From: Escherichia coli
Lineage (GTDB): Bacteria > Pseudomonadota > Gammaproteobacteria > Enterobacterales > Enterobacteriaceae
Length of the DNA stretch: 64,000 nt
Strand: one strand, 5' to 3'
Assembly: GCF_029227855.1 (NCBI RefSeq)
Contig: NZ_CP074356.1
A model generated the notes under the pieces. It saw only the letters and a list, made by a program, of their open reading frames with translations, was not told the DNA's origin and searched no databases. The position numbers and the translations under genes are program-made. Below, piece after piece: positions 33,297 through 36,155 of this stretch (position 1 is the stretch's first letter; each line of letters begins with the position of its first letter).

Positions 33297-33680
<384 letters not shown>

Positions 33681-33692
33681 ATTCTTCTCCCG

Positions 33693-34403
33693 AATAAATA
33701 TCCTCCGGCATAGCCGGAGGTTTTTCAAATGCGCCTATAAGGCTCTCTTACCAGCCGCGCCCTAACAGGCGCACACGATCTGACATTTGCATCCAACTTC
33801 GTTACTTACGGCCCGTAAACGGGCTGCCCGGATAGGGAATCGATAACTGCTCTCCCATTTTATCCTCTTCAAGCTGGTGCTTTATGTAATCCTGTATCTT
33901 CGCCGTGTTCTTACCCACCGTATCGACGTAGTACCCTCTGCACCAGAACTCCCTGTTCCTGTATTTGAATTTCAAATCACCAAACTGCTCGTAAAGCATC
34001 AGACTGCTTTTCCCTTTCAGATATCCCATAAAGCCGGATACGCTCATTTTGGGCGGGATCTCCACAAGCATATGGATATGATCTGCACAGCATTCAGCTT
34101 CCAGAATCCGTACACTTTTCCACTCACACAGCTTTCTCAAAATACTGCCTATTGCTCTACGCTTCTCTCTGTAGAACACCTGTCTTCGGTATTTTGGCGC
34201 AAAAACTATGTGATATTTACAGTTCCATCGGGTGTGCGCTAAGCTCTTTTCGTTCCCCATTGGGACCCCCTTTTGATTTCTTGTTTGACACTTGCAGTTG
34301 CCAGACCGCAAGGTGTTTTAACAAATCAAAAGGGGTTTTAATAACTGGCTTAAAGCTGAAAGCTTTCCGGAACCCCCAGCCTAGCTGGGGGTTTTCTGTG
34401 CAC
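33693..34403 (-). mobile_element. IS200-type insertion sequence (IS200/IS605 family), about 0.7 kb, between the csgA terminator and the csgC RBS
   Basis: Y1/HUH transposase ORF flanked by subterminal hairpins (CCCCCAGC-TA-GCTGGGGG at 34372..34391; CCTCCGGC-ATA-GCCGGAGG at 33702..33720); the csgA-csgC spacer is about 770 bp here against a few tens of bp remembered for K-12. Boundaries are approximate. Confidence 0.8.
33802..34260 (-). CDS. tnpA: IS200 transposase TnpA (Y1 HUH single-strand transposase)
   Basis: ORF 33802..34311; start placed at MGNEKSLAHTRWNCKYHIVFAPKYRR (152 aa); HIHMLV HUH motif. Confidence 0.9.
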   Translation of the reverse strand: MGNEKSLAHTRWNCKYHIVFAPKYRRQVFYREKRRAIGSILRKLCEWKSVRILEAECCADHIHMLVEIPPKMSVSGFMGYLKGKSSLMLYEQFGDLKFKYRNREFWCRGYYVDTVGKNTAKIQDYIKHQLEEDKMGEQLSIPYPGSPFTGRK

Positions 34404-34429
34404 AAAAAAAACAGGGCTTGCGCCCTGTT
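34404..34429 (-). terminator. Rho-independent terminator of csgBA
   Basis: Reverse strand AACAGGGC-GCAA-GCCCTGTT followed by TTTTTTTT, 20 nt after the csgA stop. Confidence 0.85.
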
Positions 34430-34448
34430 TCTTTAATACAGATGTGAA

Positions 34449-34904
34449 TTAGTACTGATGAGCGGTCGCGTTGTTACCAAAGCCAACCTGAGTGACGTTA
34501 ACGCTGGAGTTAGATGCAGTCTGGTCAACAGCAGCACCGTTACCGCCACCGAACTGTTTAACAGTCATAGTAGAATCTTTACCATTCCACTGATCAAGAG
34601 TAGCGCTGTTGCCGAAACCACGCTGAGTCAGATCGATTGAGCTGTCATCAGAACCTTGGCCAACATCTGCGCCGTTACCGCCGCCGTGCTGGGTAATGGT
34701 CAGATCAGAGTTACGGGCGTCAGCTTGCAGAGCAAGTGCAGAGTTACCGCCACCGTACTGGTAAATGTTCAGCTCTGAATTTGGGCCGCTATTATTACCG
34801 CCACCACCGTGGTTACCGCCGCCGCCGTACTGAGGAACAACACCTGCCAGAGCGCTACCGGAGAATACGATTGCTGCAATTGCTGCTACTTTTAAAAGTT
34901 TCAT
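34449..34904 (-). CDS. csgA: Major curlin subunit CsgA
   Basis: 151 aa ORF, MKLLKVAAIAAIVFSGSALAGVVPQYGGGGNHGGGGNNSGPNSEL with imperfect S-x5-Q-x-G-x-G-N-x-A repeats. Confidence 0.96.
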   Translation of the reverse strand: MKLLKVAAIAAIVFSGSALAGVVPQYGGGGNHGGGGNNSGPNSELNIYQYGGGNSALALQADARNSDLTITQHGGGNGADVGQGSDDSSIDLTQRGFGNSATLDQWNGKDSTMTVKQFGGGNGAAVDQTASNSSVNVTQVGFGNNATAHQY

Positions 34905-34944: not shown

Positions 34945-35400
34945 TTAACGTTGTGTCACGCGAATTGCCATTTGCGACTGTCTCTGCACTACAATTGCCG
35001 TTTTTTGAGTACCATACTGTGTAATATTTGCTTTATTACCAGAACCTTTCTGGATAATCATCGCAGTATTACCATAAGCACCTTGCGAAATACTGGCATC
35101 GTTGGCACTGCCCGCCTGATCAATATATGCAAGGTTATAATCTCCTGTCTGATCAATCTTTGCCCGGTTGCTACTACCTTCTTGCGCAACAACCGCCAAA
35201 AGTTTTGAGCCTCCCTGCCGTAACTGAGCACTATTATTAGTCCCAGCTTGACCAATTATGGCTGCCTGATTAAATGAAGACTTACTCAATTCATTTACCG
35301 CGAAGTTATATTCTGAATTAGCTAAATCATAACCTGCTGCGGCTGCAATCCCAGGCGCACCCAGTATTGTTAACATCATAAATAACAATTTGTTTTTCAT
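34945..35400 (-). CDS. csgB: Minor curlin nucleator subunit CsgB
   Basis: ORF 34945..35427; start placed at MKNKLLFMMLTILGAPGIAAA (151 aa). Confidence 0.94.
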   Translation of the reverse strand: MKNKLLFMMLTILGAPGIAAAAGYDLANSEYNFAVNELSKSSFNQAAIIGQAGTNNSAQLRQGGSKLLAVVAQEGSSNRAKIDQTGDYNLAYIDQAGSANDASISQGAYGNTAMIIQKGSGNKANITQYGTQKTAIVVQRQSQMAIRVTQR

Positions 35401-36155
35401 GTTGTCACCCTGGACCTGGTCGTACATTTAAGAAATTAAATCATTTCAACTTGGTTGTTAACGCAACATGTATTTTGTTAACGCTGCGTTACGATGGAAA
35501 GTATGTCTGCGGAAATATTTTTAATAACTCACCCGCGCGTTGTATTTTTCTTTTTTTGTTCATACCAAAGTATTAAAACCCACGTAAATACGCTGTTATC
35601 TACGCAAAAAAAAATATTTTGTTTTCTTTTAAATCTCCGTTTTCCGCAATCAAAAATCACCAGACAGCCATTCTTCTTGCCCGTCGCTGATTGCTGCGAT
35701 ATGTCTTGCGCACAAGCCGTGACAAACCTCGTCTTTTTGCAGTAAAAAATTGTCCACGGAGGTGTGAAGAAAAAACAACAACGTTTTACATGACGAAAGG
35801 ACTACACCGAAATATTTTTTATATGCATTATTAGTAAGTTAGCACCATTTGTATGATTTTTTAAAATTGTGCAATAAAAACCAAATGTACAACTTTTCTA
35901 TCATTTCTAACTTAACAAAACCTTAAGATTAACATTTTAATATAACGAGTTACATTTAGTTACATGTTTAACACTTGATTTAAGATTTGTAATGGCTAGA
36001 TTGAAATCAGATGTAATCCATTAGTTTTATATTTTACCCATTTAGGGCTGATTTATTACTACACACAGCAGTGCAACATCTGTCAGTACTTCTGGTGCTT
36101 CTATTTTAGAGGCAGCTGTCAGGTGTGCGATCAATAAAAAAAGCGGGGTTTCATC
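35401..36155. promoter_or_regulatory. Divergent csgBAC / csgDEFG regulatory region
   Basis: 755-bp AT-rich spacer between csgB and csgD starts, the known multi-factor curli control region. Confidence 0.8.
35960..35985. promoter_or_regulatory. OmpR binding site upstream of csgD
   Basis: GTTACATTTAGTTACATGTTTAACAC, direct GTTACAT repeats matching the known csgD OmpR site. Confidence 0.7.

Follow-up and report, generated by a model that had tools for sequence, protein, structure and literature searches.

Results

The csgA-csgC intergenic region contains an inserted element

The window, i.e. the whole stretch of 64,000 nucleotides of Escherichia coli DNA analysed here, carries the curli structural operon csgBAC on the minus strand, with an additional element of 711 bp between csgA and csgC (Table 1). 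Read in the csg sense, the csgA stop codon is followed by the intrinsic terminator of csgA with its T8 tail, then by GTGCACAGAAAACCCCCAGCTAGGCTGGGGG..., an open reading frame for 152 amino acids, ...CCTCCGGCTATGCCGGAGGATATTTATT, and finally by CGGGAGAAGAATATG, which contains the ribosome binding site (RBS) of csgC. The csgA terminator, a hairpin followed by U8 in the RNA with a folding energy of −18.6 kcal/mol (RNAfold), has the same sequence at sites without the element, here called empty sites.

The junctions were fixed by alignment to the csgA-csgC region of E. coli K-12 DH10B and of strain JNEC-KY178. In both of these empty sites the sequence reads ...GCCCTG-T8-CGGGAGAAGAATATG, whereas the filled site of the window reads T8/GTGCACAG...GGAGGATATTTATT/CGGGAG, with slashes at the junctions. 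The filled site equals the empty site plus exactly 711 bp (34403 to 33693), and no target duplication was found in comparison with either strain. The remaining ambiguity of at most 2 nt in the junctions results from the TT at the end of the element and the T-run of the target. The csgA-csgC spacer is 768 nt long in the window, compared with 58 nt in K-12 and 57-58 nt in empty genomes. The initial annotation had placed an IS200-type element at 33693-34403, downstream of the csgA terminator, upstream of the csgC RBS and co-oriented with csgBAC, and had given K-12 a short spacer; the coordinates proved exact to the base, and the interpretation was upheld on each of these points. No second IS200 copy was found within the window. 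Two entries of the open reading frame list, a TTG-started 126-aa extension of csgC out of the right end of the element (33348..33728, minus strand) and a 121-aa frame antisense to tnpA (33877..34242, plus strand), are artefacts of open reading frame calling and not genes.

Table 1 Features of the csgBAC locus and of the inserted element in the window, in csg-sense order.
Feature	Position	Strand	Remarks
csgB	35427..34945	-	curli structural operon csgBAC
csgA, intact	34904..34449	-	curli major subunit; RefSeq annotation of homologous loci
csgA intrinsic terminator, native and intact	34404..34436	-	insertion target; stem AAACAGGGC-GCAA-GCCCTGTTT, T8 tail
IS200C copy, complete, 711 bp	33693..34403	-	left end at 34403, right end at 33693; from comparison with the empty sites of JNEC-KY178 and K-12 DH10B
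Left-end RNA region of IS200	34270..34393	-	terminator hairpin and 5'UTR stem-loop; Rfam RF01405 STnc490 (art200 locus)
Left-end subterminal hairpin, perfect	34373..34391	-	CCCCCAGC-TAG-GCTGGGGG; preceded by GAAAA
tnpA, 152-aa Y1/HUH transposase and stop codon	33802..34260	-	PF01797, NF033573
Right-end subterminal hairpin, perfect	33702..33720	-	CCTCCGGC-TAT-GCCGGAGG; terminator-like in both directions
Right-end hairpin with 9-nt tail ending the element	33693..33720	-	tail ATATTTATT
csgC with its own RBS	33348..33692	-	CGGGAGAAGAATATG, ATG at 33680; directly 3' of the right end of the element; same in empty-site genomes
csgC, intact gene	33680..33348	-	NCBIfam NF007507 CsgC, 171 bits

The element is a complete copy of IS200C

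The only real open reading frame in the 711 bp is tnpA; a tnpB gene is absent. The intact frame encodes MGNEKSLAHTRWNCKYHIVF... with the motif DHIHMLV, and its product matches Pfam family PF01797 (Y1_Tnp) with an E-value of 4e-38 and NCBIfam model NF033573 (transpos_IS200) with 147.7 bits at a cut-off of 55. Relatives in the PDB are 2EC2, 2F4F and, with an E-value of 4e-19, the IS608 TnpA structure 2A6M. The HUH motif corresponds to H61-I62-H63 and the catalytic tyrosine to Y125; the latter aligns with Y127 of IS608 TnpA and DHIHML with DHIHIL. These matches and the length of 711 bp agree with the about 710 bp and the 152-aa Y1/HUH transposase described initially. The same applies to the perfect subterminal hairpins at both ends and to the lack of terminal inverted repeats, since no inverted repeat is formed by the outermost ~10 nt on either side. 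By analogy with IS608, the A-rich pentamers 5' of the hairpin feet (GAAAA left, GAAAAA right) are presumed guides that read the T-rich cleavage sites.

The left end also contains a putative regulatory RNA region. Rfam model RF01405 (STnc490) matches over its full length (1-124) to nt 11-134 of the element with 146.1 bits and an E-value of 3e-31, far above the gathering threshold of 56 bits, and the long 5'UTR stem-loop is predicted to bury the Shine-Dalgarno sequence of tnpA just before the ATG at 34260. In Salmonella IS200, the palindrome at the left end acts as a Rho-independent terminator in both directions and stops ~85% of incoming transcripts; a stem-loop sequestering the Shine-Dalgarno sequence and the antisense RNA art200 (STnc490) have been described as well (PMC4513863; PMC5435999). 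The Rfam match lies on the tnpA-sense strand. According to Ellis et al. 2015, STnc490/art200 is antisense to the 5'UTR of tnpA, so that the two seem to disagree in strand. A further Rfam hit, PsrR1 over the right-end hairpin (E 0.88, far below gathering), was rejected as a chance match.

The 711 bp are 100% identical to many chromosomal and plasmid copies in E. coli, which RefSeq annotates as "IS200/IS605-like element IS200C family transposase". The name IS200C as used here is taken from this RefSeq/PGAP annotation of the identical copies. Among 5,426 complete E. coli genomes, 2,063 contain the element at a coverage of at least 80%, and a single genome has up to 35 matches. Mobility of the element is evident from identical copies (100%) at pqqU-mcbR, lacZ-lacY and yfeX-pbp4b, in a prophage and on a plasmid.

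IS200C copies follow hairpins with a T-rich tail

For a survey of insertion sites, the exact 35-nt left end was searched in contigs of one genome per species and in metagenome contigs, giving 23 genome and 98 metagenome stretches with 91 unique upstream flanks of 45 nt. TT precedes the junction in all 91 flanks. A T occurs at position −5 in 89 of them and at position −4 in 81; position −3 holds T in 61 flanks and A in another 18. The resulting consensus TT(T/A)TT matches TTATT, the right terminus of the element itself.

A hairpin under a strict definition (stem of at least 5 bp with at least three G-C pairs, loop of 3-8 nt, end 2-12 nt before the junction) precedes the left end in 81 of the 91 flanks (89%), and every flank folds into a hairpin at minimum free energy (MFE) with DNA parameters. 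The last G/C pair is located 6-9 nt from the junction in 75 flanks; the tail of the csgA terminator, counted in this way, has 8 nt and that of the element's right end 9 nt. In controls drawn from the same DNA as the flanks, the strict hairpin was found at 8.1% of random positions, 9.5% of positions ending in TT, 8.1% of T-rich tails and 13.6% of 553 ends of T-rich runs in non-coding-like DNA. Compared with this last control, the odds ratio of the insertion flanks is 52 (Fisher p = 3e-47). A T-run alone was therefore rejected as the target, given a strict hairpin at only 8-14% of control positions versus 89% of the flanks. In 23 of 27 loci with a whole element the downstream flank begins with zero or one T, which places the insertion at the T-tail's end.

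The rule also holds for six additional E. coli copies, which are located after pqqU, after yfeX (in two strains), after a prophage gene ail/lom, in the lacZ-lacY interval and on a phage-like plasmid. A locus of Yersinia pekkanenii with an exact IS200C-type left end obeys it as well. The lacZ-lacY copy of E. coli 7/2 (NZ_CP023820.1, 383344-384854; element at 401-1111 of this stretch) lies between the lacZ stop codon and lacY, antisense to the lac operon, and yet on its own strand directly after a hairpin and GGTTATT. This suggests that the structural motif, rather than the functional terminator of a co-oriented gene, is the target.

We tentatively propose, at somewhat less than even odds, that IS200C chooses its target by structure and not by sequence alone: TnpA or the transposition complex would recognise a GC-rich hairpin in single-stranded DNA, 6-9 nt and TT(T/A)TT, a layout mimicking the right end of the element. 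The preference for hairpins could partly reflect the survival of harmless insertions instead of recognition by TnpA. The target rule is foreshadowed in the literature, where terminators were described as statistically overrepresented upstream of IS200/IS605 elements (bioRxiv 10.1101/2025.07.22.666184); its near-complete penetrance for IS200C is shown here. Both the co-orientation with csgBAC and the position after the terminator, as described initially for the csg locus, are correct; they are not peculiar to this locus and follow the general target rule of IS200C.

The insertion is recent, rare and recurrent

The window is collinear with JNEC-KY178 over 63.3 kb at 99.98-99.99% identity, with 7 mismatches and one 1-nt gap, and the IS200C element is the only structural difference. 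The single clear accessory insertion in the window that the initial annotation had recognised is confirmed by this comparison. Because a 99.99% identical genome differs structurally by the element alone, its gain is very recent. Some two dozen IS200C copies (25 matches in the record) are already present in the lineage of the window.

The csg flanks were matched in 5,407 of 5,426 complete E. coli genomes. The query containing the element was covered to at least 80% at one place in only seven of the 5,426, namely N1131, MEW, EC16, AR_0137, 005008, AR_0114 and L6-21. K-12 and about 5,400 of the 5,426 genomes have the short spacer of 57-58 nt; those sampled align only over the flanks. The same long spacer in genomes free of the element would have contradicted a gain, and none of the sampled genomes had it. 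That the long spacer is ancestral and was lost by deletion or by precise excision of the element in K-12 and most other E. coli is a reading of negligible probability. Elements of the IS200/IS605 family do excise precisely, and a single empty site such as that of JNEC-KY178 could be a revertant (PMC5027513). However, a short spacer in about 5,400 genomes across all lineages stands against the element in seven, identical copies occur at many unrelated loci and on plasmids, and the element is identical where the flanks differ at 96 positions, i.e. without co-divergence. At the species level an ancestral spacer is already refuted.

In all seven filled genomes the element lies at the same T-run and in the same orientation, with two junctions off by one T: AR_0114 reads T7/IS/T and N1131 reads T8/IS/T (712 bp), compared with T8/IS in the window. 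These offsets reflect either integration of the element one nucleotide sooner within the T-run or an error or variation in homopolymer length. A misplacement of a multicopy repeat into the csg locus during assembly would be conceivable for an element with up to about 35 matches per genome, at which short-read contigs often break, and many metagenome and genome loci do end in the element. Yet both junctions are base-perfect and obey the target rule, and they recur in seven complete genomes of independent assembly, so that we regard an assembly artefact as practically excluded.

Flanks and element variants do not co-segregate among the filled genomes. Over 3.9 kb the flank of the window differs by one base from the empty JNEC-KY178 and by 96 from AR_0137, and the elements of the window and AR_0137 are identical. 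The flanks of MEW are ~6% divergent from other E. coli loci, and its element differs by one base from that of the window. L6-21 and N1131 carry a different type of the element (53G/290C). N1131 and EC16 have identical 3.9-kb flanks, and their elements differ at 22 positions (nt 53-515), with the 53G/290C variants common to both; this difference is due either to independent insertions at the same site or to gene conversion from a divergent IS200 copy. Because these combinations of flank and element variant do not co-segregate, the sequences point to at least four or five independent insertion events at the csgA terminator. The csgA-csgC insertion is a rare recurrent polymorphism and not a unique event. 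At the start of the MEW locus (NZ_CM192120.1, from an ivory-gull isolate; positions 1-547), the clsC gene adjoining the csg locus is truncated by IS100, an element of the IS21 family.

Since IS200C favours a hairpin followed by 6-9 nt and TT(T/A)TT, the csgA terminator was hit independently in several lineages. As an alternative, the insertion might have been selected for uncoupling csgC from csgBA or for adding regulatory RNAs derived from IS200, so that the recurrence would represent convergent selection. The same site and orientation in at least four or five independent combinations of flank and element would fit such an adaptive rewiring, as would the regulation of host genes by RNAs derived from the IS200 5'UTR in Salmonella (PMC5435999). 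The recurrence is, however, fully expected from the hairpin and T-tail target rule, clonal expansion left no sign, and the RNAs of IS200C are made anyway in these lineages, in which the element is multicopy. By our own rough estimate, a genome contains roughly a thousand or more terminators. The seven filled sites among 5,426 genomes correspond to ~0.07% of ~9,400 chromosomal IS200C matches, about the chance share for one terminator. For this reason we rejected the idea that the csgA terminator is an exceptional hot spot, and we consider adaptive rewiring very improbable compared with recurrent use of an ordinary target.

Strand and proposed route of arrival

Transposition of single-stranded DNA by TnpA ("peel and paste") is established for IS608 and ISDra2 (PMC5027513; PMC2806898). 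In the IS200/IS605 family the left end is inserted 3' of an element-specific tetra- or pentanucleotide, in single-stranded DNA and preferentially in the lagging-strand template (PMC5027513), and IS200 copies in Proteobacteria are strongly biased towards the orientation of replication (PMC3971601). The GC skew of the plus strand is negative in 14 of 16 4-kb bins of the window, and due to this the minus strand, which is the sense strand of tnpA and csgBAC, has the composition of a leading strand and is assigned to the lagging-strand template. The outcome for the single window copy covered by this orientation test is the bias expected for the family.

By analogy with IS608 and ISDra2, the element would move as one DNA strand. 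TnpA would bind the subterminal hairpins and cut the top strand, and the resulting circle would be pasted 3' of a short single-stranded target, mainly in the lagging-strand template. For the csg locus this target would be the T-tail of the csgA intrinsic terminator, whose layout is that of the right end of IS200C itself (hairpin and ATATTTATT). Such a target would set the position after T8 and the orientation, in csgBAC sense and with replication, without a duplication. We conclude with a probability of roughly 0.93 that the element represents a complete, recently acquired and potentially active IS200C copy, belonging to the IS200 group of IS200/IS605, that arrived via a hairpin and T-tail target.

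Consequences for csgC

The insertion leaves csgA, its terminator, csgC and the csgC RBS undamaged in the window, and csgC is likewise intact in all seven other filled genomes. Transcripts from the csgB promoter that read through the csgA terminator would first meet the left-end terminator of the element, which in Salmonella IS200 stops ~85% of transcripts, and a second obstacle before csgC may be the right-end hairpin with its AUAUUUAUU tail, which the scan marks as terminator-like on either strand. A promoter reading out of the right end into csgC was considered and rejected, as a simple consensus scan for outward-facing sigma-70 promoters at this end, a crude and weak scan, gave none. The consensus terminator scan also missed the csgA terminator (GC-rich stem of 6-9 bp, 4-nt loop, T8), so that negative outcomes of this tool call for caution.

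In the MFE fold of the junction RNA (33670..33742, minus strand), the AUAUUU tail of the element pairs with the AAUAU start region of csgC, and GGCGCAUUU of the element pairs with codons 2-4 of csgC. In an ensemble calculation the opening energy of the csgC initiation region differs between the element and native contexts by only ~1.1-1.3 kcal/mol (5.5 versus 6.6-6.8 kcal/mol). With an extra opening cost of only ~1 kcal/mol, sequestration of the csgC start by the right-end tail was rejected as a major effect.

By analogy with the Salmonella terminator, the CsgD-dependent read-through transcription of csgC is probably reduced. Our best estimate is that CsgC would be lowered and not lost, with a mild phenotype or none, and that the insertion is probably near-neutral. 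A literature search on IS200 together with csgC returned no paper describing a csgA-csgC insertion.

Discussion

The element at the csgA terminator is a known insertion sequence in its usual kind of site, and as such it is an ordinary finding. It is modestly interesting for two reasons: the csgA terminator was used recurrently and independently, and the copies of IS200C follow a sharp rule, a hairpin and TT(T/A)TT, that resembles the right end of the element. The csg insertion marks a very recent transposition in an E. coli lineage rich in IS200C. It represents a natural polar allele that may lower the level of CsgC, which inhibits the formation of curli amyloid in the periplasm, and would be a useful natural variant for studies of the amount of CsgC required by a cell. 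Because of the target rule, IS200C insertions should not be taken as locus-specific adaptations without controls. More generally, IS200C would be a "safe-harbour" inserter, as host terminators and downstream RBSs would be spared and tnpA would be sheltered from outside transcription.

[quoted passage not shown] Target choice by structure would also represent a mode of target recognition that goes further than the "tetra/pentanucleotide only" paradigm derived from IS608 and ISDra2, and would account both for the recurrent hits at the csgA terminator and for the excess of terminators upstream of IS200/IS605 elements.

IS1541 of Yersinia pestis, also of the IS200 group, is a multicopy relative of IS200 with another host and another sequence; it is ~85% identical to IS200. 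Odaert et al. reportedly found in 1998 terminator-like stem-loops at 8 of 14 IS1541 insertion sites and proposed them as hot spots. The rule described here for IS200C corresponds to this idea at a much higher penetrance.

The prototype IS200 of Salmonella enterica, of which the E. coli IS200C is an iso-form, has ~0.7 kb and a single tnpA gene, with neither inverted repeats nor target duplication (PMC4513863). Both the Salmonella IS200 and the window element have the left-end palindrome, the 5'UTR stem-loop hiding the Shine-Dalgarno sequence and the art200/STnc490 locus. Structurally the window copy does not differ from IS200/IS200C; its csgA-csgC location is uncommon. IS608 of Helicobacter pylori and ISDra2 of Deinococcus share with it a homologous TnpA, subterminal hairpins, insertion into single-stranded DNA 3' of a short specific target and the bias for the lagging-strand template (PMC5027513). 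In contrast to IS200C, which has tnpA only, a T-rich TT(T/A)TT target and a near-obligate adjacent hairpin, these two elements also encode tnpB and use TTAC and a pentanucleotide as targets, for which no hairpin requirement is reported.

A more distant comparison concerns the RAYT proteins (TnpA_REP) of the REP/BIME system, which are related Y1 enzymes; the corresponding model NF047646 matches the window TnpA weakly, with 32 bits at a cut-off of 80. The substrate of RAYT is hairpin-forming intergenic DNA (PMC3333891). RAYTs are single-copy domesticated genes flanked by REPs, whereas the element in the window is autonomous and multicopy.
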